From: Balanoglossus misakiensis
Taxonomy: Eukaryota > Animalia > Hemichordata
Direction of reading: 5' to 3'
DNA: 64,000 bases
NCBI GenBank assembly: GCA_040954595.2
Contig: CM082577.2
Span: 15,383,903 to 15,447,902 of the forward strand
Shown here: piece by piece, positions 1 to 42,912 of the stretch
How positions within the stretch are numbered: the stretch's first letter is position 1
Layout: each line of letters begins with the position of its first letter
Translations under genes and position numbers: made by a program
The notes under the pieces: generated by a model
Seen by the model: only the letters and a program-made list of their open reading frames with translations
What the model was told of the DNA's origin: nothing
Database searches by the model: none

Positions 1-2964
1 TTCATTCATGCGAGTGAGTGTAATTGCAAATTTGCCTATTCTAGATCTGTAATGGAAATGGAGAAAGTACCTTATATTTTCTGTAAAATAGACATTTAAT
101 TGGCAAGCCGTCCTGCATCAATTATGAATTGTGTACATGCACTAAAGCGCCCTCACTGCTGGGTGTGTTGTATGGTCTTTAACCCTGTTTCAAATTAGAG
201 TACTTTCTGCAATTTCAAGACAGATCTTACGTGCCATTGGAGAGCTCCATTGACTGGTCATTCATACTGTTTTCATTCATTCATTGCGGCATCAATATAT
301 TTTATCTATTCTAGCCAAAGAGCTTGGCACCTGTTGAAATGAACTCATCTGCTGTGGGCCAGTTTATTGGTGGCAGTTGAGCTGAGAAGAGCACCTTCCT
401 TCCCGGCACGCCACCAAGTAAAGTTCCACGCCGCCCACCACAGATGCCAGCATTCATTCATGCGAGTGAGTGTAATTGCAAATTTGCCTATTCTAGATCT
501 GTAATGGAAATGGAGAAAGTACCTTATATTTTCTGTAAAATAGACATTTAATTGGCAAGCCGTCCTGCATCAATTATGAATTGTGTACATGCACTAAAGC
601 GCCCTCACTGCTGGGTGTGTTGTATGGTCTTTAACCCTGTTTCAAATTAGAGTACTTTCTGCAATTTCAAGACAGATCTTACGTGCCATTGGAGAGCTCC
701 ATTGACTGGTCATTCATACTGTTTTCATTCATTCATTGCGGCATCAATATATTTTATCTATTCTAGCCAAAGAGCTTGGCACCTGTTGAAATGAACTCAT
801 CTGCTGTGGGCCAGTTTATTGGTGGCAGTTGAGCTGAGCAGAGCACCTTCCTTCCCGGCACGCCACCAAGTAAAGTTCCACGCCGCCCACCACAGATGCC
901 AGCATTCATTCATGCGAGTGAGTGTAATTGCAAATTTGCCTATTCTAGATCTGTAATGGAAATGGAGAAAGTACCTTATATTTTCTGTAAAATAGACATT
1001 TAATTGGCAAGCCGTCCTGCATCAATTATGAATTGTGTACATGCACTAAAGCGCCCTCACTGCTGGGTGTGTTGTATGGTCTTTAACCCTGTTTCAAATT
1101 AGAGTACTTTCTGCAATTTCAAGACAGATCTTACGTGCCATTGGAGAGCTCCATTGACTGGTCATTCATACTGTTTTCATTCATTCATTGCGGCATCAAT
1201 ATATTTTATCTATTCTAGCCAAAGAGCTTGGCACCTGTTGAAATGAACTCATCTGCTGTGGGCCAGTTTATTGGTGGCAGTTGAGCTGAGAAGAGCACCT
1301 TCCTTCCCGGCACGCCACCAAGTAAAGTTCCACGCCGCCCACCACAGATGCCAGCATTCATTCATGCGAGTGAGTGTAATTGCAAATTTGCCTATTCTAG
1401 ATCTGTAATGGAAATGGAGAAAGTACCTTATATTTTCTGTAAAATAGACATTTAATTGGCAAGCCGTCCTGCATCAATTATGAATTGTGTACATGCACTA
1501 AAGCGCCCTCACTGCTGGGTGTGTTGTATGGTCTTTAACCCTGTTTCAAATTAGAGTACTTTCTGCAATTTCAAGACAGATCTTACGTGCCATTGGAGAG
1601 CTCCATTGACTGGTCATTCATACTGTTTTCATTCATTCATTGCGGCATCAATATATTTTATCTATTCTAGCCAAAGAGCTTGGCACCTGTTGAAATGAAC
1701 TCATCTGCTGTGGGCCAGTTTATTGGTGGCAGTTGAGCTGAGCAGAGCACCTTCCTTCCCGGCACGCCACCAAGTAAAGTTCCACGCCGCCCACCACAGA
1801 TGCCAGCATTCATTCATGCGAGTGAGTGTAATTGCAAATTTGCCTATTCTAGATCTGTAATGGAAATGGAGAAAGTACCTTATATTTTCTGTAAAATAGA
1901 CATTTAATTGGCAAGCCGTCCTGCATCAATTATGAATTGTGTACATGCACTAAAGCGCCCTCACTGCTGGGTGTGTTGTATGGTCTTTAACCCTGTTTCA
2001 AATTAGAGTACTTTCTGCAATTTCAAGACAGATCTTACGTGCCATTGGAGAGCTCCATTGACTGGTCATTCATACTGTTTTCATTCATTCATTGCGGCAT
2101 CAATATATTTTATCTATTCTAGCCAAAGAGCTTGGCACCTGTTGAAATGAACTCATCTGCTGTGGGCCAGTTTATTGGTGGCAGTTGAGCTGAGAAGAGC
2201 ACCTTCCTTCCCGGCACGCCACCAAGTAAAGTTCCACGCCGCCCACCACAGATGCCAGCATTCATTCATGCGAGTGAGTGTAATTGCAAATTTGCCTATT
2301 CTAGATCTGTAATGGAAATGGAGAAAGTACCTTATATTTTCTGTAAAATAGACATTTAATTGGCAAGCCGTCCTGCATCAATTATGAATTGTGTACATGC
2401 ACTAAAGCGCCCTCACTGCTGGGTGTGTTGTATGGTCTTTAACCCTGTTTCAAATTAGAGTACTTTCTGCAATTTCAAGACAGATCTTACGTGCCATTGG
2501 AGAGCTCCATTGACTGGTCATTCATACTGTTTTCATTCATTCATTGCGGCATCAATATATTTTATCTATTCTAGCCAAAGAGCTTGGCACCTGTTGAAAT
2601 GAACTCATCTGCTGTGGGCCAGTTTATTGGTGGCAGTTGAGCTGAGCAGAGCACCTTCCTTCCCGGCACGCCACCAAGTAAAGTTCCACGCCGCCCACCA
2701 CAGATGCCAGCATTCATTCATGCGAGTGAGTGTAATTGCAAATTTGCCTATTCTAGAATCTTACGTGCCATTGGAGAGCTCCATTGACTGGTCATTCATA
2801 CTGTTTTCATTCATTCATTGCGGCATCAATATATTTTATCTATTCTAGCCAAAGAGCTTGGCACCTGTTGAAATGAACTCATCTGCTGTGGGCCAGTTTA
2901 TTGGTGGCAGTTGAGCTGAGGAGAGCACCTTCCTTCCCGGCACGCCACCAAGTAAAGTTCCACG
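1..2964 (+). repeat. Satellite array 1: 452-bp monomers (one 274-bp monomer near the end) with a 904-bp dimeric higher-order repeat
   Basis: Near-exact 452-bp periodicity. Private variant attatGaatt. Successive monomers alternate ctgagAagag / ctgagCagag. The array ends at agtaaagttccacg|tgcattcc (2964/2965). Confidence 0.97.
47..223. mobile_element. 177-bp MITE-like unit with 24-bp imperfect TIRs, present in every 452-bp monomer (representative copy)
   Basis: Left end ctgtaatggaaatggagaaagtac versus reverse complement of right end ctgtcttgaaattgcagaaagtac gives 19/24 identity. Flanked by AT on both sides within palindromic agatct, so a 2-, 4- or 6-bp TSD reading is formally possible. Absent from the short monomers. 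Confidence 0.8.
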
Positions 2965-4754
2965 TGCATTCCTGGCCCTGGTTTTATTTATGTTTACAGA
3001 CAATATTGCATTTTTGTACAAGTATTTTAATCAACTATAAATTTTGAATGTGTCATTTACCTGAACCGGTCATGTTGACCAGAATGATACATTTCTGCCT
3101 TCACTCACCCTATAAATATGTGATTGAGACATAGGTCATTTGCATAAGCTAACATACCAGAAAGTAAGCATATCTGTTGTTTTCCCTGTGTCACTGCCAT
3201 CAAAGTAAAAATTAGACGTTGTGTAGAGCAAACTCCAATTTTTTGTTCTCAATAAACATGGATGAATTACATAGAATGTGTTTGTTGTTTACAGTCTTTA
3301 AATGACACATTAGATTATGCACTTTACAAAACGTTTCTGAGAAACAAGTGACTAACTAGTTTCTTTCCACTGTGGCCAACGTGGTTCACTGTTTGTGTCA
3401 GAATCTCTCTGTTTTGCAAGGATTTTGAAATCATAGTGGTGACATGCATAGTGAAAATCAGCTACTTTCAAATGTCCGTCATGTTCATGCTGTAATTGAA
3501 TTTTCAAAGCTGGGCTGGCGTGTTTTTTCTTATTTACATAAGTATCACACTTTATACATGTATCTTCATGGGGTTTTCTGAGTCCCGTATTTAGGTCCTC
3601 TCTCACAATTTTACGAAATATCGTATAACTGACAGTTGTTCTTCCCAGAAGAGATTGGTTGGTTATGAACTCTCGGTGTAACTGCGATATACTGTGGTCC
3701 GGCGCCAGGTACGGTTTAAATCGAGGATTCCTGCAGTAGTGAGATTCTACAATTCTGTGCCTGCGTACGTGTTCAGTGATATCAGTCAGCAAATTTGGAT
3801 TGAGTTTCCGACGATGCCCTTTGTGTCGGCCCCTTGCATCTGGCATCAGACCAGTAAAGTTCCATGTGCATTCCTGGCCCTGGTTTTATTTATGTTTACA
3901 GACAATATTGCATTTTTGTACAAGTATTTTAATCAACTATAAATTTTGAATGTGTCATTTACCTGAACCGGTCATGTTGACCAGAATGATACATTTCTGC
4001 CTTCACTCACCCTATAAATATGTGATTGAGACATAGGTCATTTGCATAAGCTAACATACCAGAAAGTAAGCATATCTGATGTTTTCCCTGTGTCACTGCC
4101 ATCAAAGTAAAAATTAGACGTTGTGTAGAGCAAACTCCAATTTTTTGTTCTCAATAAACATGGATGAATTACATAGAATGTGTTTGTTGTTTACAGTCTT
4201 TAAATGACACATTAGATTATGCACTTTACAAAACGTTTCTGAGAAACAAGTGACTAACTAGTTTCTTTCCACTGTGGCCAACGTGGTTCACTGTTTGTGT
4301 CAGAATCTCTCTGTTTTGCAAGGATTTTGAAATCATAGTGGTGACATGCATAGTGAAAATCAGCTACTTTCAAATGTCCGTCATGTTCATGCTGTAATTG
4401 AATTTTCAAAGCTGGGCTGGCGTGTTTTTTCTTATTTACATAAGTATCACACTTTATACATGTATCTTCATGGGGTTTTCTGAGTCCCGTATTTAGGTCC
4501 TCTCTCACAATTTTACGAAATATCGTATAACTGACAGTTGTTCTTCCCAGAAGAGATTGGTTGGTTATGAACTCTCGGTGTAACTGCGATATACTGTGGT
4601 CCGGCGCCAGGTACGGTTTAAATCGAGGATTCCTGCAGTAGTGAGATTCTACAATTCTGTGCCTGCGTACGTGTTCAGTGATATCAGTCAGCAAATTTGG
4701 ATTGAGTTTCCGACGATGCCCTTTGTGTCGGCCCCTTGCATCTGGCATCAGACC
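2951..4754. repeat. 902-bp tandem duplication (2951-3852 / 3853-4754) of the 3' part and 3' UTR of the transposase N-half gene
   Basis: Near-identical units offset by 902 bp. Junction catcagacc|agtaaagttcc has AGT microhomology to the native catcagacc|agttgaac. Confidence 0.95.
3352..3846 (-). pseudogene. 5'-truncated duplicate (164 aa) of the transposase N-half gene
   Basis: Identical to the last 164 aa of the 4254-5216 ORF. Produced by the 902-bp duplication and retains an in-frame ATG (MPDARGRH). Confidence 0.85.
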
Positions 4755-5216
4755 AGTTGAACAGTGCATCATTTTGCTTAGAACGGTTCTAGTCCGCCTC
4801 TCACTAATGCCAAATAATTTCAGGAATGCATTTTTGCAGACAGTAACCGTTTCACCGCCTTCATTCACCAGGTGATAACGAACCGATTTCTTGTGTGACT
4901 TCATCTGTATATCCATCAGTTTGTAGAGCATCAAGTTCTGTTCATTATACACGCGACCATCAAAATATTTTCTCGTGGTGCCTAAAACATGCGTACTCCC
5001 AAGCTTCCGCAGACAATTCCCTTGAACGCAGGCGCATTCCAAGGAAAGACTGTCAATATCTGGAAAAGGGCGATTTTTCCTTGGTTTTTGTCTCGGACAC
5101 GTCTTTTTAGAATTCCTACGTGGCTTGTTGGCTCGAGCTGACAGTTCGGTTCTGCGTTGCTGCCACACAGGAAGGGGTTCCCACGCATAAGCAACTCCCC
5201 GGCAGGCCATGGTCAC
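4254..5216 (-). CDS. Sola1-like transposase, N-terminal Cys/His-rich DNA-binding half (320 aa)
   Basis: Motif series CxC...C, VCKNAFLKLFGIS, DARGRH, HVRRHRIVESHYCR...YL, SYTIFRKIV...N...KPHEDTCIKC, H..H. I recognise this as the region that normally precedes the catalytic core in Sola1-type (DUF7869-containing) transposases. AATAAA on the - strand at 3885-3890. Confidence 0.8.
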   Translation of the reverse strand: MTMACRGVAYAWEPLPVWQQRRTELSARANKPRRNSKKTCPRQKPRKNRPFPDIDSLSLECACVQGNCLRKLGSTHVLGTTRKYFDGRVYNEQNLMLYKLMDIQMKSHKKSVRYHLVNEGGETVTVCKNAFLKLFGISERRTRTVLSKMMHCSTGLMPDARGRHKGHRRKLNPNLLTDITEHVRRHRIVESHYCRNPRFKPYLAPDHSISQLHREFITNQSLLGRTTVSYTIFRKIVREDLNTGLRKPHEDTCIKCDTYVNKKKHASPALKIQLQHEHDGHLKVADFHYACHHYDFKILAKQRDSDTNSEPRWPQWKETS

Positions 5217-5257
5217 AGCTGAAGTATTTGTTCAAGTACTGACTGACTAAACGCGGC

Positions 5258-6391
5258 ATGGAACAAACGAACGAACGACTTCACGTTCGGAAAAAAAATC
5301 GTTGCGAGCTGTTGGGTGCATGCCTCTATAGTTGTCGGCAACCGTTCTTTTTTATTGCTAAACAATGCTGTCAGAGCATGGAAGGTGTGGTGGAAAACGA
5401 ACAGAGGTTTTGTACGACCAACGATTGGATGGTGCTACATATGGACTTCCACAAGTCATTGCCGGTTCCTAAACTCAGCTCTGAAGACTTTTACTTTAAA
5501 TCGAAATTGCAAATGAAGCTCCTTGGAATTTACAACGGGACAACGGAAAAGATGCATTGTTATGTATGGACAGAGCTCGATAGCAGAAAGTCTCCCGATG
5601 AAGTTATTACCTGTCTAAATCACTTTTTTTATAACTCGGGTGTGACCAGCAGACATGCAGTTATTTACAGCGACAACTGCCGTGCCGAATTCAAGTGTGG
5701 GAAGTTAATGTTTTACTATGACTATCTGTTACGAAAGGGCGTGTTTCGACGAATTGACTATAAAACTCTTGTGGCTGGACACACGTACTCCACCTGTGAC
5801 CGAGTTTTTGCGTCCATTGAAAGGCATGCAAGTCGTTTCCAGAGTATAGAGACACCTCACGATTGGACATCTGTGATTCGAGGATCTTCTCTGAATGGGA
5901 ACATTGGAGTTACGGAGATGACTCACAGAGACTTTTTCAATTATTCTGATTTCCTGAAAAATGAGTACGTTGTGCGTTATGCAGATACAAACAATGTAAC
6001 TTTTTACTACCAAGCCATGCACTATTTTAATTTTGGAGAAGGAGAAAGGCTTGATACCGACGGCAACCTCAGAACATTTAGTCATGCAGATAAAGTTTGG
6101 GTGAGAACATCTCTAGATCCAAGCGAGACCCCGATTGTAGTCGACTTTAGAAAGAAGAAGCAGAACCGGCGTTTACAAGATTGTACGCTGAACAAACTTT
6201 ATCAGGAACGTCGACCACTGGCGAGCAAAGTTTGGCGGGATCTTCAGAGTTTAGCCAAAAATTACCTGTCTCCGGAGGCAATAGAATTTTATAGGAATCT
6301 ACCGCTTCAGGAGAGTAGTGGCACCTCTGCAGACCCGTACGCCTTTCATGATGATGACGACGACGATGATGATGATATGGGCGGTGGTTGA
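5258..6391 (+). CDS. Sola1-like transposase, catalytic DDD/E (RNase H-fold) half; 377 aa, or 337 aa from ATG 5378
   Basis: Motifs MDFHKSLPVPKL..FYFKSKL, CYVWTE...KSPDEVITCL, IYSDNC, LVAGHTYSTCDRVFASIE, and C-terminal LY..RRPL..K.RDL. Three candidate catalytic Asp residues are intact. Acidic poly-D tail. Confidence 0.85.
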   Translation: MEQTNERLHVRKKNRCELLGACLYSCRQPFFFIAKQCCQSMEGVVENEQRFCTTNDWMVLHMDFHKSLPVPKLSSEDFYFKSKLQMKLLGIYNGTTEKMHCYVWTELDSRKSPDEVITCLNHFFYNSGVTSRHAVIYSDNCRAEFKCGKLMFYYDYLLRKGVFRRIDYKTLVAGHTYSTCDRVFASIERHASRFQSIETPHDWTSVIRGSSLNGNIGVTEMTHRDFFNYSDFLKNEYVVRYADTNNVTFYYQAMHYFNFGEGERLDTDGNLRTFSHADKVWVRTSLDPSETPIVVDFRKKKQNRRLQDCTLNKLYQERRPLASKVWRDLQSLAKNYLSPEAIEFYRNLPLQESSGTSADPYAFHDDDDDDDDDMGGG

Positions 6392-6552
6392 ACAAACTGT
6401 CCTTTTCATGACGACAGTGATTTTGGATATTTGATGTGCGTGCACAGTTTATATGTAATATTTTCACACGAACGAGTTTTGACTGAATTTGATTAAAGAA
6501 TGTACTCGATAATTAACAAATGTGCTGAATCGTGGTTATTATGTTGTTAATT

Positions 6553-6592
6553 TTTGTTTGTTTGTTTGTTTGTTTGTTTGTTTGTTTGTTTG
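6553..6592 (+). repeat. (TTTG)10 microsatellite
   Basis: Read directly. Also present at 38348-38387. Confidence 0.95.
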
Positions 6593-6789
6593 TAAACAAT
6601 TTCCGTTCATTCAACTGGCTACAAAGTTGGATTTTTGTACTGGGAAGCGATAAACTCGCACATCAAAACCGGGGAGACTCGATCATTTTTCCCTGCAGGT
6701 AGCCTGAAAAGCACCCGGGCAGAGATTACGTCATATATGGTCCACTTTAATACGAAATTATGCAAATGTGACATTTCACGGAAACGGCG

Positions 6790-6798
6790 TATATAAAA
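6790..6798 (+). promoter_or_regulatory. TATA box of the wHTH-SET gene
   Basis: TATATAAAA in a GC-flanked context about 100 bp upstream of ATG 6891. Confidence 0.6.
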
Positions 6799-6890
6799 GC
6801 GACCCTGGGCTATTGTTCGGAATGCGTCATCGACGAGAGAGTGACTGATAATTCTTCTACCTCGAGTCAACCATTCTGTATATACTGAAC

Positions 6891-8230
6891 ATGGCTAGCT
6901 GGCGCAGGAAGAGACAAGGCAATGTGCGGTCTGTAATCAACGAACGGCACCGCTCAGTTCAGTGTCCCTTTCTTCAAAAGTGGATCGGTGAGCAATTGGT
7001 ATTTTCAGGTCGTTCAGAGGATGAAGTCCAGTCCAGTACTGTATTTGAGAGCTACAAATGTTGGGTTGAAAACTATTCGTCGGCGGACAATCAAGTAATG
7101 ATTATGGTTACTAAAGCTCGATTTTTCAAGGTGAGAATGATCGCATTTTTCTTTCCCCCCCCCCCTCCCTCCCTCCCTCCCTCCCCCAAGGGACTCGTTT
7201 TCTGTCTCTTTTAAACCTGTAACTTAACGAAAAGGAAGTTTTTCACATATCTCTTCGTTGACACTATAGCAATTTGGAGCGCGGATGCTTCAAGAGAAGA
7301 GCGTTACCAAATCAAAGTCGGCCGGGGTTAATATTTATAGAGGTGTTCGTCTGAAAGCTGGTTCGCGAAGAATCTCAACGGGGAAACCTGAGCACAGTGT
7401 ACTTCAGACCAGGGCAAGGGCATTTCTTGATGACGCCAGCGTGACCGTTCCGATCGAGGTAAGAATGGTGTTTTGTTTGGACTAGGACAATAGAACGTTG
7501 CAATGAGTGTGTCAATGGGTGTCCAAGTGCAAACGTGGTCTGCTTCTGTCCACAAATGCCATTAATTTTTGGCAGGATTTATAAAATTGTCAATGAAGAA
7601 TACAAAAATGAAAAACAACAGTTAATAGCAAACTGGTAGGATTGCAAGGGCTTGTAAAACGGTACACACTGTACCAGGAAGTTTGCAACACTAATGAAGA
7701 ATGTATATGATATATTTAGGTGAGAACTGTTCGCGATCGCCGGGACGCAGGACGGTGCGCGTTTTCGACGAGGGATATTCAAGCCTGGGACGTCGTCTGC
7801 GAATACCGGGGCACGGTTATTAGCGTTGAAGAAGCTAGTCGGCGTGATGAGCTTTACAGGGCAGAGGGGAAACGACCACGCATGTTCCATCTCTACATTG
7901 GAAAGAGACACGTTGTGTGAGTGTATCACTTAGTCGAATATATGGTCATATATTGCAAAGCATCTGTCGAAATAGAAAACGTAATATTGTCTATATTTTC
8001 CTCATTAACGCAGCATTGACGGATACGATGTCCCAGCCGGTGAAGAAAATTTAGCAGGCCTAATAAATCACAGTCAGCAGAACGCCAACTTGGTACCGGT
8101 TCGGATCGGAGAGCGCCTGGTTTTCTTTGCAACCAGGAATCTTTGTCAGGGAGTAGAGCTTTTGTATGATTACGGTGACGGGGGTGAAGAGGATTTCTTC
8201 AGTGGTTCTCAAACTTTTCCTGAAAATTAA
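6891..8230 (+). CDS. Spliced gene, 280 aa: winged-helix-like N-terminal domain plus SETD8/PR-Set7-like lysine methyltransferase. Exons 6891-7130, 7270-7458, 7720-7916, 8014-8230
   Basis: Three GT-AG introns (aag|gtgaga..tatag, gag|gtaaga..tttag, gt|gtgagt..cgcag; phases 0, 0, 2) give an 843-nt open frame. SET motifs: GRCAFSTRDI..WDVVCEYRG, IDG, GLINHS, FATRNL..GVELLYDYGD. N-terminal region FLQKWIGEQL..VQSSTVFESYKCW..FFKQF..GVNIYRGVRLK resembles a D5-primase C-terminal or RFX-type winged helix. Confidence 0.88.
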
Positions 8231-9138
8231 GGCATTAACACATCAACGCTTCGGGGTGTCGTAACGGCGGCGCGGCGGGGGGGGGGGGGGGGGGACGTGA
8301 AAATGTTTGTATCAGGAACAAAATTCCCGTGCAAATCACCTTGATCCGGGTGGGTGGACTATTCGCGACAAATGTTGAAATCATACAAAGCATTTTACTT
8401 AATTAACCCATTTTTTTCATTTATTTGTTTACAGTTTACAACGTCATAGAGAAGTTGAACTAGAGACTGGATCAGCGTGGGTGACACCATAGTACACCAA
8501 TGTTTTCTTCAGTTTGATTCAATTGTAATTTAAAACTGAGATTGCCTAACGCTTTCCCAGATTTTTTTAACCACTGAGAAACTGTGGGTTTTTTTCTGGG
8601 TTTTGGTGCGAGGTGATCTCAGTCAGTGGTGTTAATTTAATTAATCATTTTCTTTTCCTATTTACGTCGACTGAAATGTATTTTGATAGGTGATAGTCAT
8701 ACCATAAAAAAAATCTTACGGCGCGACTGCCAAAATGTACATTTATTTGTCCGTTCCAAGTTATTTTGTGTATGTGTGATGGGTGCCGGTGACTGTGCAG
8801 GGTTGATTTCCCTAGAGCGACTGTTATATTCGTTTTCCAACGATGATGAATTTACATGTTATTTGCTTGGCATTTTGACGCAGAGACACTTCTGAAAACA
8901 CAAACCTATTAATTATGCCACGGGTGTAAATTGATCACATTAAAAGAGGCTTTAGACGTTTGCCGCGAGCTCCTGGTGGGCAGAATCTTGTCAGCCCAAA
9001 TTTGACTATAAGTACATAGCCAATGATGTGACGCTCTCCCACATCCTTCGCCGCGCCTTTTCGCTGATTTACAGCATCTTGCGTAAACACTGTCATTTGA
9101 TCTTGCTTGGCAGAAGTCAACTTGCTCTATACTACATT

Positions 9139-9504
9139 ATGGCGGCCAAGCTCAACTGCATATCAGATAATGCCAAGGAGCGTTTGAGAGGCATCCTCGC
9201 CAGAAGGAGTCGCGTTTCCGGTGACTGTGTGCTCTGGACGGGTGCAGCTTGTCGAAACGGCTATGGCTCTATTACGTTCAGAGATGAGAACACTCTAACC
9301 GCCTATGTCCATCACATTGCACTCCTAATTAACGGAGTGCAATTGGTGGGCAGGCGGTTAGAGTGTTCTCATCTTTGCAACGAAAAGCTATGCATCCGCC
9401 CAGAGCACATTGTCCAGGAAACGCGACTCCTAAACATTTCACGAAAGACGTGCTTTAAATCCCCAAAAGGGGAGTGTCACCACGATCCCAGGTGCCTAAG
9501 GTGA
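9139..9504 (+). CDS. His-Me finger endonuclease (zinc-binding loop of homing endonuclease / His-Cys box-like), 121 aa
   Basis: Motifs CVLWTG...GYG, YVHH, ECSHLCNEKLCIRPEHIVQE...N.SRKTC...C.H.PRC match the zf-His_Me_endon pattern. First ATG is at 9139 (attATGG). Confidence 0.85.
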   Translation: MAAKLNCISDNAKERLRGILARRSRVSGDCVLWTGAACRNGYGSITFRDENTLTAYVHHIALLINGVQLVGRRLECSHLCNEKLCIRPEHIVQETRLLNISRKTCFKSPKGECHHDPRCLR

Positions 9505-9789
9505 GTAATCCTCTTCTCATTTGATATGTATTGTGTGACCCTGCAGTTGAAACGCTTTCATCAATAATTTGCGGCGCGTGGGTAATCTCGGTGTTATTGA
9601 CAATGCAGCCGGCCCAAACATTTTTAAATTAACACTGTTTCTGACTGTATTAACGAAATGTCCAATTTGCAAGTAGCCTATAGACAACCCTTTTGAATGA
9701 GTTTTGTCTCGTTGAGATTTTATACATAAGGAACAATCTAGATTTATTTTAGAAGACACTGTTCTTTTAAAACAGCTAGCATAATACAG

Positions 9790-10156
9790 CTAAATTTCGG
9801 AATTTCCGGACAATTTTCGGAATTCCTTTTAAATTTGAGAAATTTTTCATCAGATATAAGTGTTACTATTTATTGGACATGTTTTTATCATTGTTTACTT
9901 TTTAAGGTCATTCTCACCCCCCCCCCCAAAAAAAGCCGCTTTAGGCTTCATGTTCAGTAAAAAATCTGGAAAGTTCAGCTGAATTTTACACTGATCACAC
10001 ATTTTTGGGAAGGTCTGGCGCAAAATAAAGGATGACAAATGTAAATCTAATGTCACATTTGTAAACCTCTAAGTATTGTACACTCATTCTATTAAGTATA
10101 TGCAAATAGTACGGATAATTTTTTCGGAATGTGGAATTCCGAAATTAGTTCGGAAC
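9790..10156. repeat. Clustered TTCGGAA motifs forming an imperfect inverted-repeat pair about 330 bp apart
   Basis: ctaaatttcggaatttcc and aattttcggaattcc (9790-9826) versus ggaattccgaaattag (10133-10148). Confidence 0.5.
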
Positions 10157-10480
10157 GTGTTAGCAGTGAAGAGATCACCACTGAGGGTTGGAAGGCCTTG
10201 CCAGAAATTAACGCGTAAAGTACGCCCTCACAGGCCATGTAAACAAGGTCAAATAAGGCCGTCTGGCAAACGAATGATTAATTCAACGCGCCATTTGAGC
10301 CGAGCTGAGTTGGTCTGAGTTGCGTATCACACAGACTTAGGCTGAATGTCAGTGGAGTAACCAGTCCGTTTTAGATTTACCAATGATGTGAATTTAATTT
10401 CTTCACCCAGAAAAACAGAACACAACTTGTCTGCAACATGATGCTGGAGGTGACACATGACAGAGAAGTGGATCCGCGTT

Positions 10481-10818
10481 GTCAACACAGATGCCAGCAT
10501 TCAAAAGGGGAGTGCCACCTGCTAAAATCAACTCATCTGCTGTTGGCCCATTTTACCTGTGGCAACTGTTCAGAGGAGACAACGTTTATTCCGTGCAAGC
10601 CAACACGCAATGTTGGGGTCTACCTGTCAACACAGATGCAAGCATTCATGTGAGTGAGTATCAGGACTGACCTTGTATTTGCTGAATAATTCATAATGCC
10701 TATTTTAGAATTCTTAGAGGCATTTGGAGTTCATTGCCTGGTCAACCAAACTACACCCCTTAACAGCTGAAACAAAATGCGTATTGTGTTCATTCATTCA
10801 TTGCATCAATATATATAG
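10481..10818 (+). repeat. Diverged copy of the short satellite monomer inside the cassette
   Basis: Collinear matches: cacctg.t.aaat.aactcatctgctgt.ggcc, cacagatgc.agcattcat, gagtgagt, gcctatt.tagaattctta, cattg.ctggtca, ttcattcattcattgcatcaatatat. Confidence 0.85.
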
Positions 10819-11121
10819 GCAACATGAGTATCAAGTAGCACTATTTGTTTACGATTGTATTCATGAAAACTTCCCACTAACAATTCCACAGTTAATATTG
10901 AACACATTTATCCAACAAGGTCAAAAGAAAAAGGGAATCTTCTGGTTCCAAAATACGCCACAAATGTGGGTCAACATACAGTGAAATATTATGGTGCTCA
11001 AATATGCAACATATCAAATCTGTCTCATCAAAGTCATGCTTTAAAAAAGAATTGAAAAGGTATTATTTATCCATTTGACTGCTGTATTTTCAGAAGGAAA
11101 ACAAACTGAATTTGGTTTTTC

Positions 11122-34759: not shown

Positions 34760-36549
34760 TGCATTCCTGGCCCTGGTTTTATTTATGTTTACAGACAATA
34801 TTGCATTTTTGTACAAGTATTTTAATCAACTATAAATTTTGAATGTGTCATTTACCTGAACCGGTCATGTTGACCAGAATGATACATTTCTGCCTTCACT
34901 CACCCTATAAATATGTGATTGAGACATAGGTCATTTGCATAAGCTAACATACCAGAAAGTAAGCATATCTGTTGTTTTCCCTGTGTCACTGCCATCAAAG
35001 TAAAAATTAGACGTTGTGTAGAGCAAACTCCAATTTTTTGTTCTCAATAAACATGGATGAATTACATAGAATGTGTTTGTTGTTTACAGTCTTTAAATGA
35101 CACATTAGATTATGCACTTTACAAAACGTTTCTGAGAAACAAGTGACTAACTAGTTTCTTTCCACTGTGGCCAACGTGGTTCACTGTTTGTGTCAGAATC
35201 TCTCTGTTTTGCAAGGATTTTGAAATCATAGTGGTGACATGCATAGTGAAAATCAGCTACTTTCAAATGTCCGTCATGTTCATGCTGTAATTGAATTTTC
35301 AAAGCTGGGCTGGCGTGTTTTTTCTTATTTACATAAGTATCACACTTTATACATGTATCTTCATGGGGTTTTTTGAGTCCCGTATTTAGGTCCTCTCTCA
35401 CAATTTTACGAAATATCGTATAACTGACAGTTGTTCTTCCCAGAAGAGATTGGTTGGTTATGAACTCTCGGTGTAACTGCGATATACTGTGGGCCGGCGC
35501 CAGGTACGGTTTAAATCGAGGATTCCTGCAGTAGTGAGATTCTACAATTCTGTGCCTGCGTACGTGTTCAGTGATATCAGTCAGCAAATTTGGATTGAGT
35601 TTCCGACGATGCCCTTTGTGTCGGCCCCTTGCATCTGGCATCAGACCAGTAAAGTTCCATGTGCATTCCTGGCCCTGGTTTTATTTATGTTTACAGACAA
35701 TATTGCATTTTTGTACAAGTATTTTAATCAACTATAAATTTTGAATGTGTCATTTACCTGAACCGGTCATGTTGACCAGAATGATACATTTCTGCCTTCA
35801 CTCACCCTATAAATATGTGATTGAGACATAGGTCATTTGCATAAGCTAACATACCAGAAAGTAAGCATATCTGATGTTTTCCCTGTGTCACTGCCATCAA
35901 AGTAAAAATTAGACGTTGTGTAGAGCAAACTCCAATTTTTTGTTCTCAATAAACATGGATGAATTACATAGAATGTGTTTGTTGTTTACAGTCTTTAAAT
36001 GACACATTAGATTATGCACTTTACAAAACGTTTCTGAGAAACAAGTGACTAACTAGTTTCTTTCCACTGTGGCCAACGTGGTTCACTGTTTGTGTCAGAA
36101 TCTCTCTGTTTTGCAAGGATTTTGAAATCATAGTGGTGACATGCATAGTGAAAATCAGCTACTTTCAAATGTCCGTCATGTTCATGCTGTAATTGAATTT
36201 TCAAAGCTGGGCTGGCGTGTTTTTTCTTATTTACATAAGTATCACACTTTATACATGTATCTTCATGGGGTTTTCTGAGTCCCGTATTTAGGTCCTCTCT
36301 CACAATTTTACGAAATATCGTATAACTGACAGTTGTTCTTCCCAGAAGAGATTGGTTGGTTATGAACTCTCGGTGTAACTGCGATATACTGTGGTCCGGT
36401 GCCAGGTACGGTTTAAATCGAGGATTCCTGCAGTAGTGAGATTCTACAATTCTGTGCCTGCGTACGTGTTCAGTGATATCAGTCAGCAAATTTGGATTGA
36501 GTTTCCGACGATGCCCTTTGTGTCGGCCCCTTGCATCTGGCATCAGACC
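34746..36549. repeat. 902-bp tandem duplication, copy 2
   Basis: Same as 2951-4754, offset 31,795. Confidence 0.95.
35147..35641 (-). pseudogene. 5'-truncated duplicate of the transposase N-half gene, copy 2
   Basis: 164 aa with two substitutions (APAH, LKKP) relative to copy 1. Confidence 0.85.
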
Positions 36550-37011
36550 AGTTGAACAGTGCATCATTTTGCTTAGAACGGTTCTAGTCCGCCTCTCACT
36601 AATGCCAAATAATTTCAGGAATGCATTTTTGCAGACAGTAACCGTTTCACCGCCTTCATTCACCAGGTGATAACGAACCGATTTCTTGTGTGACTTCATC
36701 TGCATATCCATCAGTTTGTAGAGCATCAAGTTCTGTTCATTATACACGCGACCATCAAAATATTTTCTCGTGGTGCCTAAAACATGCGTACTCCCAAGCT
36801 TCCGCATACAATTCCCTTGAACGCAGGCGCATTCCAAGGAAAGACTGTCAATATCTGGAAAAGGGCGATTTTTCCTTGGTTTTTGTCTCGGACACGTCTT
36901 TTTAGAATTCCTACGTGGCTTGTTGGCTCGAGCTGACAGTTCGGTTCTGCGTTGCTGCCACACAGGAATGGGTTCCCACGCATAAGCAACTCCCCGGCAG
37001 GCCATGGTCAC
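36049..37011 (-). CDS. Sola1-like transposase N-terminal half, copy 2 (320 aa)
   Basis: Intact. Three conservative changes relative to copy 1 (L>I, L>M, I>M). Confidence 0.8.
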   Translation of the reverse strand: MTMACRGVAYAWEPIPVWQQRRTELSARANKPRRNSKKTCPRQKPRKNRPFPDIDSLSLECACVQGNCMRKLGSTHVLGTTRKYFDGRVYNEQNLMLYKLMDMQMKSHKKSVRYHLVNEGGETVTVCKNAFLKLFGISERRTRTVLSKMMHCSTGLMPDARGRHKGHRRKLNPNLLTDITEHVRRHRIVESHYCRNPRFKPYLAPDHSISQLHREFITNQSLLGRTTVSYTIFRKIVREDLNTGLRKPHEDTCIKCDTYVNKKKHASPALKIQLQHEHDGHLKVADFHYACHHYDFKILAKQRDSDTNSEPRWPQWKETS

Positions 37012-37052
37012 AGCTGAAGTATTTGTTCAAGTACTGACTGACTAAACGCGGC

Positions 37053-38186
37053 ATGGAACAAACGAACGAACGACTTCACGTTCGGAAAAAAAATCGTTGC
37101 GAGCTGTTGGGTGCATGCCTCTATAGTTGTCGGCAACCGTTCTTTTTTATTGCTAAACAATGCTGTCAGAGCATGGAAGGTGTGGTGGAAAACGAACAGA
37201 GGTTTTGTACGACCAACGATTGGATGGTGCTACATATGGACTTCCACAAGTCATTGCCGGTTCCTAAACTCAGCTCTGAAGACTTTTACTTTAAATCGAA
37301 ATTGCAAATGAAGCTCCTTGGAATTTACAACGGGACAACGGAAAAGATGCATTGTTATGTATGGACAGAGCTCGATAGCAGAAAGTCTCCCGATGAAGTT
37401 ATTACCTGTCTAAATCACTTTTTTTATAACTCGGGTGTGACCAGCAGACATGCAGTTATTTACAGCGACAACTGCCGTGCCGAATTCAAGTGTGGGAAGT
37501 TAATGTTTTACTATGACTATCTGTTACGAAAGGGCGTGTTTCGACGAATTGACTATAAAACTCTTGTGGCTGGACACACGTACTCCACCTGTGACCGAGT
37601 TTTTGCGTCCATTGAAAGGCATGCAAGTCGTTTCCAGAGTATAGAGACACCTCACGATTGGACATCTGTGATTCGAGGATCTTCTCTGAATGGGAACATT
37701 GGAGTTACGGAGATGACTCACAGAGACTTTTTCAATTATTCTGATTTCCTGAAAAATGAGTACGTTGTGCGTTATGCAGATACAAACAATGTAACTTTTT
37801 ACTACCAAGCCATGCACTATTTTAATTTTGGAGAAGGAGAAAGGCTTGATACCGACGGCAACCTCAGAACATTTAGTCATGCAGATAAAGTTTGGGTGAG
37901 AACATCTCTAGATCCAAGCGAGACCCCGATTGTAGTCGACTTTAGAAAGAAGAAGCAGAACCGGCGTTTACAAGATTGTACGCTGAACAAACTTTATCAG
38001 GAACGTCGACCACTGGCGAGCAAAGTTTGGCGGGATCTTCAGAGTTTAGCCAAAAATTACCTGTCTCCGGAGGCAATAGAATTTTATAGGAATCTACCGC
38101 TTCAGGAGAGTAGTGGCACCTCTGCAGACCCGTACGCCTTTCATGATGATGACGACGACGATGATGATGATATGGGCGGTGGTTGA
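37053..38186 (+). CDS. Sola1-like transposase catalytic half, copy 2
   Basis: Protein identical to copy 1. Confidence 0.85.
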   Translation: MEQTNERLHVRKKNRCELLGACLYSCRQPFFFIAKQCCQSMEGVVENEQRFCTTNDWMVLHMDFHKSLPVPKLSSEDFYFKSKLQMKLLGIYNGTTEKMHCYVWTELDSRKSPDEVITCLNHFFYNSGVTSRHAVIYSDNCRAEFKCGKLMFYYDYLLRKGVFRRIDYKTLVAGHTYSTCDRVFASIERHASRFQSIETPHDWTSVIRGSSLNGNIGVTEMTHRDFFNYSDFLKNEYVVRYADTNNVTFYYQAMHYFNFGEGERLDTDGNLRTFSHADKVWVRTSLDPSETPIVVDFRKKKQNRRLQDCTLNKLYQERRPLASKVWRDLQSLAKNYLSPEAIEFYRNLPLQESSGTSADPYAFHDDDDDDDDDMGGG

Positions 38187-38584
38187 ATAAACTGTCCTTT
38201 TCATGACGACAGTGATTTTGGATATTTGATGTGCGTGCACAGTTTATATGTAATATTTTCACACGAACGAGTTTTGACTGAATTTGATTAAAGAATGTAC
38301 TCGATAATTAACAAATGTGCTGAATCGTGGTTATTATGTTGTTAATTTTTGTTTGTTTGTTTGTTTGTTTGTTTGTTTGTTTGTTTGTAAACAATTTCCG
38401 TTCATTCAACTGGCTACAAAGTTGGATTTTTGTACTGGGAAGCGATAAACTCGCACATCAAAACCGGGGAGACTCGATCATTTTTCCCTGCAGGTAGCCT
38501 GAAAAGCACCCGGGCAGAGATTACGTCATATATGGTCCACTTTAATACGAAATTATGCAAATGTGACATTTCACGGAAACGGCG

Positions 38585-38593
38585 TATATAAAA
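38585..38593 (+). promoter_or_regulatory. TATA box, copy 2
   Basis: TATATAAAA upstream of ATG 38686. Confidence 0.6.
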
Positions 38594-38685
38594 GCGACCC
38601 TGGGCTATTGTTCGGAATGCGTCATCGACGAGAGAGTGACTGATAATTCTTCTACCTCGAGTCAACCATTCTGTATATACTGAAC

Positions 38686-40023
38686 ATGGCTAGCTGGCGC
38701 AGGAAGAGACAAGGCAATGTGCGGTCTGTAATCAACGAACGGCACCGCTCAGTTCAGTGTCCCTTTCTTCAAAAGTGGATCGGTGAGCAATTGGTATTTT
38801 CAGGTCGTTCAGAGGATGAAGTCCAGTCCAGTACTGTATTTGAGAGCTACAAATGTTGGGTTGAAAACTATTCGTCGGCGGACAATCAAGTAATGATTAT
38901 GGTTACTAAAGCTCGATTTTTCAAGGTGAGAATGATCGCATTTTTCTTTCCCCCCCCCCCCCTCCCTCCCTCCCTCCCCCAAGGGACTCGTTTTCTGTCT
39001 CTTTTAAACCTGTAACTTAACGAAAAGGAAGTTTTTCACATATCTCTTCGTTGACACTATAGCAATTTGGAGCGCGGATGCTTCAAGAGAAGAGCGTTAC
39101 CAAATCAAAGTCGGCCGGGGTTAATATTTATAGAGGTGTTCGTCTGAAAGCTGGTTCGCGAAGAATCTCAACGGGGAAACCTGAGCACAGTGTACTTCAG
39201 ACCAGGGCAAGGGCATTTCTTGATGACGCCAGCGTGACCGTTCCGATCGAGGTAAGAATGGTGTTTTGTTTGGACTAGGACAATAGAACGTTGCAATGAG
39301 TGTGTCAATGGGTGTCCAAGTGCAAACGTGGTCTGCTTCTGTCCACAAATGCCATTAATTTTTGGCAGGATTTATAAAATTGTCAATGAAGAATACAAAA
39401 ATGAAAAACAACAGTTAATAGCAAACTGGTAGGATTGCAAGGGCTTGTAAAACGGTACACACTGTACCAGGAAGTTTGCAACACTAATGAAGAATGTATA
39501 TGATATATTTAGGTGAGAACTGTTCGCGATCGCCGGGACGCAGGACGGTGCGCGTTTTCGACGAGGGATATTCAAGCCTGGGACGTCGTCTGCGAATACC
39601 GGGGCACGGTTATTAGCGTTGAAGAAGCTAGTCGGCGTGATGAGCTTTACAGGGCAGAGGGGAAACGACCACGCATGTTCCATCTCTACATTGGAAAGAG
39701 ACACGTTGTGTGAGTGTATCACTTAGTCGAATATATGGTCATATATTGCAAAGCATCTGTCGAAATAGAAAACGTAATATTGTCTATATTTTCCTCATTA
39801 ACGCAGCATTGACGGATACGATGTCCCAGCCGGTGAAGAAAATTTAGCAGGCCTAATAAATCACAGTCAGCAGAACGCCAACTTGGTACCGGTTCGGATC
39901 GGAGAGCGCCTGGTTTTCTTTGCAACCAGGAATCTTTGTCAGGGAGTAGAGCTTTTGTATGATTACGGTGACGGGGGTGAAGAGGATTTCTTCAGTGGTT
40001 CTCAAACTTTTCCTGAAAATTAA
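38686..40023 (+). CDS. wHTH-SETD8-like methyltransferase, copy 2. Exons 38686-38925, 39063-39251, 39513-39709, 39807-40023
   Basis: Same splice sites and frame as copy 1. The only length difference (2 bp) falls in the C-rich tract of intron 1, as expected if the intron call is right. Confidence 0.88.
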
Positions 40024-40926
40024 GGCATTAACACATCAACGCTTCGGGGTGTCGTAACGGCGGCGCGGCGGGGGGGGGGGGGACGTGAAAATGTTTGTAT
40101 CAGGAACAAAATTCCCGTGCAAATCACCTTGATCCGGGTGGGTGGACTATTCGCGACAAATGTTGAAATCATACAAAGCATTTTACTTAATTAACCCATT
40201 TTTTTCATTTATTTGTTTACAGTTTACAACGTCATAGAGAAGTTGAACTAGAGACTGGATCAGCGTGGGTGACACCATAGTACACCAATGTTTTCTTCAG
40301 TTTGATTCAATTGTAATTTAAAACTGAGATTGCCTAACGCTTTCCCAGATTTTTTTAACCACTGAGAAACTGTGGGTTTTTTTCTGGGTTTTGGTGCGAG
40401 GTGATCTCAGTCAGTGGTGTTAATTTAATTAATCATTTTCTTTTCCTATTTACGTCGACTGAAATGTATTTTGATAGGTGATAGTCATACCATAAAAAAA
40501 ATCTTACGGCGCGACTGCCAAAATGTACATTTATTTGTCCGTTCCAAGTTATTTTGTGTATGTGTGATGGGTGCCGGTGACTGTGCAGGGTTGATTTCCC
40601 TAGAGCGACTGTTATATTCGTTTTCCAACGATGATGAATTTACATGTTATTTGCTTGGCATTTTGACGCAGAGACACTTCTGAAAACACAAACCTATTAA
40701 TTATGCCACGGGTGTAAATTGATCACATTAAAAGAGGCTTTAGACGTTTGCCGCGAGCTCCTGGTGGGCAGAATCTTGTCAGCCCAAATTTGACTATAAG
40801 TACATAGCCAATGATGTGACGCTCTCCCACATCCTTCGCCGCGCCTTTTCGCTGATTTACAGCATCTTGCGTAAACACTGTCATTTGATCTTGCTTGGCA
40901 GAAGTCAACTTGCTCTATACTACATT

Positions 40927-41292
40927 ATGGCGGCCAAGCTCAACTGCATATCAGATAATGCCAAGGAGCGTTTGAGAGGCATCCTCGCCAGAAGGAGTCG
41001 CGTTTCCGGTGACTGTGTGCTCTGGACGGGTGCAGCTTGTCGAAACGGCTATGGCTCTATTACGTTCAGAGATGAGAACACTCTAACCGCCTATGTCCAT
41101 CACATTGCACTCCTAATTAACGGAGTGCAATTGGTGGGCAGGCGGTTAGAGTGTTCTCATCTTTGCAACGAAAAGCTATGCATCCGCCCAGAGCACATTG
41201 TCCAGGAAACGCGACTCCTAAACATTTCACGAAAGACGTGCTTTAAATCCCCAAAAGGGGAGTGTCACCACGATCCCAGGTGCCTAAGGTGA
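40927..41292 (+). CDS. His-Me finger endonuclease, copy 2
   Basis: Protein identical to copy 1. Confidence 0.85.
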   Translation: MAAKLNCISDNAKERLRGILARRSRVSGDCVLWTGAACRNGYGSITFRDENTLTAYVHHIALLINGVQLVGRRLECSHLCNEKLCIRPEHIVQETRLLNISRKTCFKSPKGECHHDPRCLR

Positions 41293-42271
41293 GTAATCCT
41301 CTTCTCATTTGATATGTATTGTGTGACCCTGCAGTTGAAACGCTTTCATCAATAATTTGCGGCGCGTGGGTAATCTCGGTGTTATTGACAATGCAGCCGG
41401 CCCAAACATTTTTAAATTAACACTGTTTCTGACTGTATTAACGAAATGTCCAATTTGCAAGTAGCCTATAGACAACCCTTTTGAATGAGTTTTGTCTCGT
41501 TGAGATTTTATACATAAGGAACAATCTAGATTTATTTTAGAAGACACTGTTCTTTTAAAACAGCTAGCATAATACAGCTAAATTTCGGAATTTCCGGACA
41601 ATTTTCGGAATTCCTTTTAAATTTGAGAAATTTTTCATCAGATATAAGTGTTACTATTTATTGGACATGTTTTTATCATTGTTTACTTTTTAAGGTCATT
41701 CTCACCCCCCCCCCCCCCAAAAAAAGCCGCTTTAGGCTTCATGTTCAGTAAAAAATCTGGAAAGTTCAGCTGAATTTTACACTGATCACACATTTTTGGG
41801 AAGGTCTGGCGCAAAATAAAGGATGACAAATGTAAATCTAATGTCACATTTGTAAACCTCTAAGTATTGTACACTCATTCTATTAAGTATATGCAAATAG
41901 TACGGATAATTTTTTCGGAATGTGGAATTCCGAAATTAGTTCGGAACGTGTTAGCAGTGAAGAGATCACCACTGAGGGTTGGAAGGCCTTGCCAGAAATT
42001 AACGCGTAAAGTACGCCCTCACAGGCCATGTAAACAAGGTCAAATAAGGCCGTCTGGCAAACGAATGATTAATTCAACGCGCCATTTGAGCCGAGCTGAG
42101 TTGGTCTGAGTTGCGTATCACACAGACTTAGGCTGAATGTCAGTGGAGTAACCAGTCCGTTTTAGATTTACCAATGATGTGAATTTAATTTCTTCACCCA
42201 GAAAAACAGAACACAACTTGTCTGCAACATGATGCTGGAGGTGACACATGACAGAGAAGTGGATCCGCGTT

Positions 42272-42609
42272 GTCAACACAGATGCCAGCATTCAAAAGGG
42301 GAGTGCCACCTGCTAAAATCAACTCATCTGCTGTTGGCCCATTTTACCTGTGGCAACTGTTCAGAGGAGACAACGTTTATTCCGTGCAAGCCAACACGCA
42401 ATGTTGGGGTCTACCTGTCAACACAGATGCAAGCATTCATGTGAGTGAGTATCAGGACTGACCTTGTATTTGCTGAATAATTCATAATGCCTATTTTAGA
42501 ATTCTTAGAGGCATTTGGAGTTCATTGCCTGGTCAACCAAACTACACCCCTTAACAGCTGAAACAAAATGCGTATTGTGTTCATTCATTCATTGCATCAA
42601 TATATATAG
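42272..42609 (+). repeat. Diverged satellite monomer inside cassette copy 2
   Basis: Same as 10481-10818. Confidence 0.85.
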
Positions 42610-42912
42610 GCAACATGAGTATCAAGTAGCACTATTTGTTTACGATTGTATTCATGAAAACTTCCCACTAACAATTCCACAGTTAATATTGAACACATTT
42701 ATCCAACAAGGTCAAAAGAAAAAGGGAATCTTCTGGTTCCAAAATACGCCACAAATGTGGGTCAACATACAGTGAAATATTATGGTGCTCAAATATGCAA
42801 CATATCAAATCTGTCTCATCAAAGTCATGCTTTAAAAAAGAATTGAAAAGGTATTATTTATCCATTTGACTGCTGTATTTTCAGAAGGAAAACAAACTGA
42901 ATTTGGTTTTTC

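Follow-up and report, generated by a model that had tools for sequence, protein, structure and literature searches.

A gene of four exons at positions 6891-8230 (plus strand) of the stretch of Balanoglossus misakiensis DNA analyzed here (64,000 nt, referred to below as the window) is real and spliced, and encodes a protein of 280 amino acids in which a predicted winged helix of the D5/P4-primase/RFX type is followed by a SET domain nearest to that of SETD8, with glycine in place of the arginine of the RxxNH motif. On aligned sequences, loss of this arginine is a trait of a whole two-domain family (21 of 23 family rows among the matches listed). The explanation that we find most promising, tentative as it is, is that the protein comes from an accessory gene of a split-DUF7869 transposon, and that it would bind element DNA and methylate a nearby lysine by means of a remodelled active site.

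The features of the gene are as follows; P0004 denotes XP_070545977.1, an uncharacterised protein of 278 amino acids from Ptychodera flava, obtained with exon 4 as query.

6790-6797, plus strand: TATA box from a motif scan, 100 nt 5' of the ATG
6891-7130, plus strand: exon 1, amino acids 1-80, basic N-terminal tail and winged-helix helices; 46/80 identical to P0004
7270-7458, plus strand: exon 2, amino acids 81-143, end of the winged helix, wing, linker, and pre-SET helix; 35/63 identical to P0004
7720-7916, plus strand: exon 3, amino acids 144-209, first half of the SET domain; 48/66 identical to P0004
8014-8230, plus strand: exon 4, amino acids 210-280 and stop, GLINHS, ELLYDY, and post-SET segment; 50/71 identical to P0004

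The splice model of the initial annotation, four exons with three introns, stands. All introns (139, 261, and 97 nt) are GT-AG, and the spliced product has no internal stops, with EYRG at 171, GLINHS at 224, and ELLYDY at 257. P0004 is identical to it at 179 of 280 positions (64%; two one-residue gaps), and a tblastn of P0004 splits into segments 1-80, 81-146, 143-207, and 208-278, corresponding to the four exons. Within 30 nt of the six splice sites 2520 GT/AG combinations are available, 30 of them with an open frame, and among these the proposed set scores highest against P0004 (954 vs. 942). Exons 3 and 4 match Pfam SET, at E 1.7e-4 and 1.7e-7, respectively; a word search with exon 1 alone found no homologues. 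The SET exons are better kept than the winged-helix exons (70-73% vs. 56-58% identical to P0004), and all four exons are identical in the second copy of the gene-bearing block described below. P0004 is a cluster of one member, and its gene is annotated once in Ptychodera (contig of 29 Mb).

The N-terminal region had been proposed to be a winged helix, and Atlas, profile, and fold comparisons agreed with that proposal, pointing to the D5/RFX type. Residues 20-112 of P0004 retrieved Pox_D5 clusters from the ESM Atlas (feature score 0.94; TM 0.69-0.74 over 77-82 residues), and the whole-protein Atlas query SET matches only. A profile built from the C-termini of 10 phage primases, with the seed phage (weak P0004 match, E 3) left out, gave 24.9 bits for the 280-aa protein (amino acids 29-112) and 22.3 for P0004, against maxima of 8.9 and 9.3, respectively, in 500 shuffles each; five control proteins gave no score. 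The 22 other family rows among the matches listed reached at most 9.7 bits when taken singly; a family profile of 14 rows, both hemichordate ones excluded, matched the primase profile with 94% probability (score 43; maximum of 13 in 40 column shuffles). The AlphaFold model of P0004, made from 22 aligned sequences, has pLDDT 84 and pTM 0.80 (single-sequence prediction, pLDDT 33), and its residues 28-110 align with the RFX DNA-binding domain 1dp7 at Z 8.2 and rmsd 2.4 (73/76 aligned), a middling Z, yet from an alignment that spans nearly the entire domain. In Pfam, neither PF03288 nor PF02257 was matched (E up to 1), no PDB sequence matched the N-terminal region, and solved P4/D5 domains are absent from the best 50 fold matches, a list filled by SET matches. 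One of two weak phage matches, H3, was dropped as a different protein.

In fold and profile, approximately amino acids 28-112 are thereby akin to the C-terminal wHTH of D5/P4-type primase-helicases (PF03288, Pox_D5) and to RFX DNA-binding domains (1dp7, 8zjr); unlike in the primase-helicases, no primase or helicase is attached, and the similarity lies below the Pfam reporting level. The winged helix is predicted to bind DNA. The RFX X-box consensus does not occur within the 64-kb window.

SETD8 is the nearest known SET domain, as had been proposed, both in sequence (closest solved sequence, E 9e-10; the next family after SET8 reaches 3e-6) and in fold: the AlphaFold model of P0004 matches human SET8 first (1zkk; Z 16.4, rmsd 2.8, 147 aligned, 24% identity in the structural alignment) and 7d20, SET8 bound to a CENP-A nucleosome, second, a match that reflects the SET8 fold only. 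The 280-aa protein and SETD8/KMT5A/PR-Set7 (1zkk, 7d20) have the SET fold and the pre-SET helix in common; the winged helix stands where SETD8 has a long disordered N-terminus. Human residue numbers below were taken from alignments to 7d1z and 5teg. Equivalents of SETD8 Y245, R258, Y262, D285, N298, H299, Y334, Y336, and D338 are kept, which includes both tyrosines pointed out earlier as of the monomethylation type (Y172 of EYRG, equivalent to Y245; Y260 of ELLYDY, equivalent to Y334). Changed are R295 (Gly224, the previously noticed GLINHS instead of RxxNHS), Y271 (R197), Y273 (F199), F275 (L201), E259 (Asp), and G229 (Cys); no Trp follows Y262 of the protein (equivalent to SETD8 Y336), and the post-SET HPW is missing. 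The aromatic strand Y271/Y273/F275 and the post-SET Trp have roles in SETD8. In a quick maximum-likelihood tree (146 of the 153 rows among the matches listed, seven short rows dropped; 139 columns; midpoint root; many open forks), a branch with SH-aLRT 93 unites 117 non-family SETD8-like rows and includes no family row; monophyly of the family is not resolved in this tree.

The family was drawn from the best 150 of 341 phmmer matches of P0004 (E ≤ 0.001) in 1.84 billion representatives. An iterated winged-helix profile recovered 24 of 153 rows among the matches listed, namely the 280-aa protein, P0004, and 22 others; P0115 is a winged-helix fragment, and P0152 is without a Pfam SET match. At least 20 further proteins, of 227-373 amino acids, have both domains, with Pfam SET found in 17 of the 17 scanned and three aligning over the SET motifs. 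The identity level of the family is 20-28%. Nine relatives that were looked up are metagenomic (ENA, JGI, or Logan), lie on contigs of 1-18 kb, and are named at most "hypothetical protein"; none comes from an annotated genome. Searches requiring near-exact peptide patterns found no loci related to P0004, P0014, A4, or A5 in viral contigs, nor to A5 in prokaryote genomes. Three other SET-bearing records were observed on the side: P0093 combines SET with an SF3 helicase (PPV_E1_C/DUF5906), which hints at a route by which SET and a D5-type winged helix came together; the seadragon protein P0009 has five SET domains in 4152 amino acids; and in MT837890.1, an unannotated 6.6-kb entry labelled "Bacteriophage sp.", positions 4770-5144 weakly resemble SET (E 0.02).

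Residues were counted over 23 family rows, P0152 included, all among the matches listed. Kept are Y245 in 22, R258 in 22, Y262 in 21, D285 in 23, N298 in 22, H299 in 20, and Y336 in 20 (three gaps). The R295 position is Ala in eight, Ser in seven, Gly in five, Arg in two, and Asn in one; among the matches listed, Arg stands there in 114/123 non-family rows vs. 2/23 family rows. The Y271 position is Arg in 10, Thr in seven, and Lys in four, the Y273 and F275 positions are mostly aliphatic, and Y334 is replaced by Trp in 14 rows and kept in five; the post-SET Trp is found in 15/23, and in neither of the hemichordate proteins. Arg or Lys at Y271 accompanies 16 of 30 rows without R295, vs. none of 116 with it (among the matches listed; the rows are related and do not count as independent events), and all five Gly-bearing family rows listed have Arg there. 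The exchange at Y271 is possibly a compensating swap for the lost R295.

Gly224 is placed at KMT5A R265, and at R634 of the fly protein, because the spacing from Arg to His matches. According to the available part of a bioRxiv paper on KMT5A, human R265G abolishes activity in vitro; R634 and H638 of the fly protein touch SAM, R634G flies are viable hypomorphs, and R634G is modelled to disrupt cofactor binding in the fly protein, with peptide binding minimally affected. The accessible text of a second paper uses SETD8 R295G as an inactive mutant (PMC11258601). The initial annotation recognised neither that Gly224 equals the usual catalytically dead SETD8 mutation nor that the protein has a wider family.

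Monomethylation of H4K20, the activity suggested in the initial annotation, is not supported: it is weakened by this family-wide loss of R295, and further by the changes Y271 to Arg, Y273 to Phe, and F275 to Leu and the absent post-SET Trp. Given Trp at Y334 in 14 of 23 family rows listed and the other changed active-site positions, product specificity cannot be read from SETD8.

The same arginine bears on a reading that we consider unlikely, though deserving of weight: the protein could be a DNA-tethered pseudo-enzyme, whose SET domain holds on to the H4 tail or the nucleosome without methylating, and so shields the element from host SETD8 or SUV4-20 or recruits partners. In its favour are the natural R295G, which in modelling of the fly protein leaves peptide binding minimally affected and disrupts that of the cofactor (available part of the same bioRxiv paper), and the contrast between kept residues on the H4 side (R258, E/D259, Y262) and changes at Y271, Y273, F275, and the post-SET Trp. 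Against it, Asn-His, Y245, and Y336 are near-invariant across the listed family rows at 20-28% identity. A small residue at the R295-type position also occurs in active SET enzymes (vSET, SUV4-20, SMYD). The retained Asn-His and catalytic Tyr, with the new Arg or Lys at Y271, speak for a remodelled active site rather than for decay, and on these alignments an active but rewired enzyme appears somewhat likelier than a decoy.

The gene is flanked on both sides by genes of mobile-element type:

4254-5210, minus strand: Cys/His-rich ORF, 318 amino acids, intact, no Pfam or PHROG match
5378-6391, plus strand: DUF7869 (DDE-type) transposase catalytic half, intact (E 1.4e-14)
9139-9504, plus strand: His-Cys-box (I-PpoI-like) endonuclease, 121 amino acids, intact (PF05551, E 6.7e-13; I-PpoI, E 0.002)

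The 318-aa ORF, which by its resemblance we take to be the half that binds DNA in a split transposase, and the DUF7869 ORF stand head-to-head with start codons 167 nt apart; the SET gene starts 500 nt past the end of the DDE gene and has the nuclease gene on its other side, so that four intact genes lie within 5.3 kb. The DUF7869 half, its label presumably that of Sola1, is matched in Pfam and has conserved acidic motifs in A1; it has no match in PDB. Stand-alone DUF7869 relatives from Saccoglossus and from a Logan contig (306 and 311 amino acids; 47 and 52% identical) start at nearly the same point, in a search restricted to 176-562 amino acids; a longer Saccoglossus protein model, of 344 amino acids, exists. 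A search for the transposase gave two matches among 380 candidates and no Ptychodera protein, which speaks weakly against cargo status, and near-exact peptide patterns found no related loci in viral or in metagenome contigs. For two of the block genes, the closest relatives with a name are acorn worm proteins.

The coding sequence of the nuclease doubles as an RNA hairpin of 227 nt (9205-9431, and in copy 2), both arms of which code nuclease-like motifs. Its z is -16 vs. 200 dinucleotide shuffles, and its energy -154 kcal/mol vs. -64 +/- 6 (minimum -82) in 200 protein-preserving codon draws. Such a hairpin could throttle a toxic nuclease, by a translation block or by feeding a small-RNA pathway.

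The genes lie in a block that occurs twice within a satellite array; of the features below, only the satellite-like pieces have an assigned strand:

1-2964, 11122-34759, and 42913-64000: 452/274-bp satellite array, 99-100% homogeneous, 75% of the window
2965-11121: gene-bearing block, copy 1, 8,157 bp (block comparison)
34760-42912: gene-bearing block, copy 2, junctions as in copy 1, identity of 99.8% (block comparison)
38686-38925, 39063-39251, 39513-39709, and 39807-40023: SET exons in block copy 2
2947-3855: 902-bp tandem duplication that contains the junction with the satellite and, in truncated form, a copy of the minus-strand gene's 3' portion
10483-10814, plus strand: old diverged satellite-like pieces inside the block, 71-95% to the monomer

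The satellite has a 452-bp monomer with a nested 274-bp sub-unit and a higher-order pattern of roughly 6.5-7.2 kb. The block copies, 31.8 kb apart, differ by seven substitutions and short repeat-length changes, none of them in the SET exons; four of the seven fall in the ORF at 4254-5210, and three of these alter the protein (small numbers). Since both junctions are the same in the two copies, one 31.8-kb duplication is indicated rather than two jumps. Between the block junctions 86 bp of the monomer are absent, and the pieces at 10483-10814 may represent either an older array edge or the satellite source. At the block, 36 arm pairs (14 nt, at most two mismatches) were found and none had a TSD; the ends may be lost. 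A clean transposon insertion was rejected, there being no TIR with TSD. That the SET gene is cargo is read from its neighbourhood at one locus, because no TIR/TSD was found and the monomer lacks KolobokP-type ends (see below).

This leaves room for a domesticated or lineage-specific host gene that sits beside transposon genes at a satellite edge and was copied along, a reading that we hold to be rather improbable. It would accommodate the three introns, the one annotated Ptychodera copy on a 29-Mb contig, the missing element ends, the old satellite relics in the block, and copies that arose by segmental duplication; it sits poorly with the packing of four intact genes into 5.3 kb, with the mobile-element genes that flank the SET gene to either side, and with nine looked-up relatives that are metagenomic, unnamed, and on contigs of 1-18 kb. 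Very unlikely, in our view, is a writer of H4K20me1 directed to the satellite or the centromere: the gene does lie inside a homogeneous satellite, the Y245 and Y334 equivalents are kept, and the second fold match is SET8 on a CENP-A nucleosome (7d20, SET8 fold only), but the family is far wider than the array, no X-box occurs in the window, the channel residues are unlike those of SETD8, and nothing observed marks the array as centromeric. The gene is almost certainly neither the ordinary SETD8 of the host nor a decaying SETD8 copy, for although the nearest solved structure and sequence are SETD8, the structural identity is 24%, the SET phylogeny puts the protein outside the 117-row SETD8-like branch (SH-aLRT 93), the N-terminus is different, and an intact relative is 64% identical, which bears out the distinction from SETD8 drawn in the initial annotation.

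In the preferred reading, that of a transposon accessory gene, the SET gene would move with the transposase, the winged helix would tether the SET domain to a specific site of the element, and the remodelled SET domain would methylate a lysine of the adjacent chromatin. The substrate would be a histone, most likely the H4 tail, with K20 not assured; the benefit might be that element genes are kept open, or chromatin is otherwise controlled, inside satellite heterochromatin. A bolder proposal, which we advance as doubtful, is that the family comprises chromatin writers of mobile elements, with a primase-derived winged helix and a SETD8-derived SET domain with swapped Arg, and that here a selfish unit of four genes (split transposase, writer, and hairpin-throttled homing nuclease) amplifies in the satellite and sets the chromatin of its own array.

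If active, the protein would be a compact sequence-targeted histone methyltransferase, by which a transposon in an animal could mark its own chromatin. For the SET active site, the family is an experiment done by nature: 21 of the 23 rows listed are without the Arg whose loss kills SETD8, and other catalytic residues are kept. Either the design compensates for the loss or the domain is a decoy that has been conserved, and both outcomes bear on how R265G/R295G "dead" mutants are read. No literature on a D5/RFX-winged-helix-SET fusion or on this element was found, with Repbase Reports, subscription journals, and supplements outside the scope of the search.

KolobokP elements are described, in the available part of the source, as having a DDE transposase, an I-PpoI-like His-Me nuclease, repeats of ~450 bp, and tandem multimers (PMC9587614). 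The block resembles them, as far as that part goes, in its DDE transposase, His-Cys-box nuclease, near-450-bp repeats, and tandem array, and differs in its DUF7869 split transposase, its extra SET gene, and a 452-bp unit without short TIR/TTAA ends. Membership in KolobokP was rejected, as the monomer is not an LTDR of ~450 bp with TIRs of 11-18 bp and TTAA ends: it has three TTAA sites with 3-5/14 matches, and the best rotation among about 5,000 reaches 10/14. For Sola1, TIRs and a 4-bp AWWT target duplication are given in the text available (PMC3845634); by that description, TIRs with an AWWT duplication were not found at the block, where the ends may be lost. SET genes on HarbingerS and MuDR of Phytophthora (PMC12730594) and a ParB-methylase gene on Sola1-1_Ec32, with a DNA-binding domain fused to a methylase (PMC12477816), are reported in the available parts of these papers.

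SET genes on transposons and a DNA-binding-plus-methylase gene on Sola1 are therefore already known, and the winged-helix-SET layout, judged from sequence, was not found described. These elements, as covered by the parts available, share with the block a chromatin- or DNA-modifying gene next to a transposase; they differ in that the transposase families or the methylase class are other ones and a winged-helix-SET fusion is not mentioned there. A SET or PR domain steered by a fused DNA-binding domain is also the arrangement of PRDM9, SETMAR, and SUVH2/9, which differ from the winged-helix-SET protein in having unrelated DNA-binding domains, belonging to other SET subfamilies, and being host genes; SUVH2/9 provide a model for the inactive reading of the protein.
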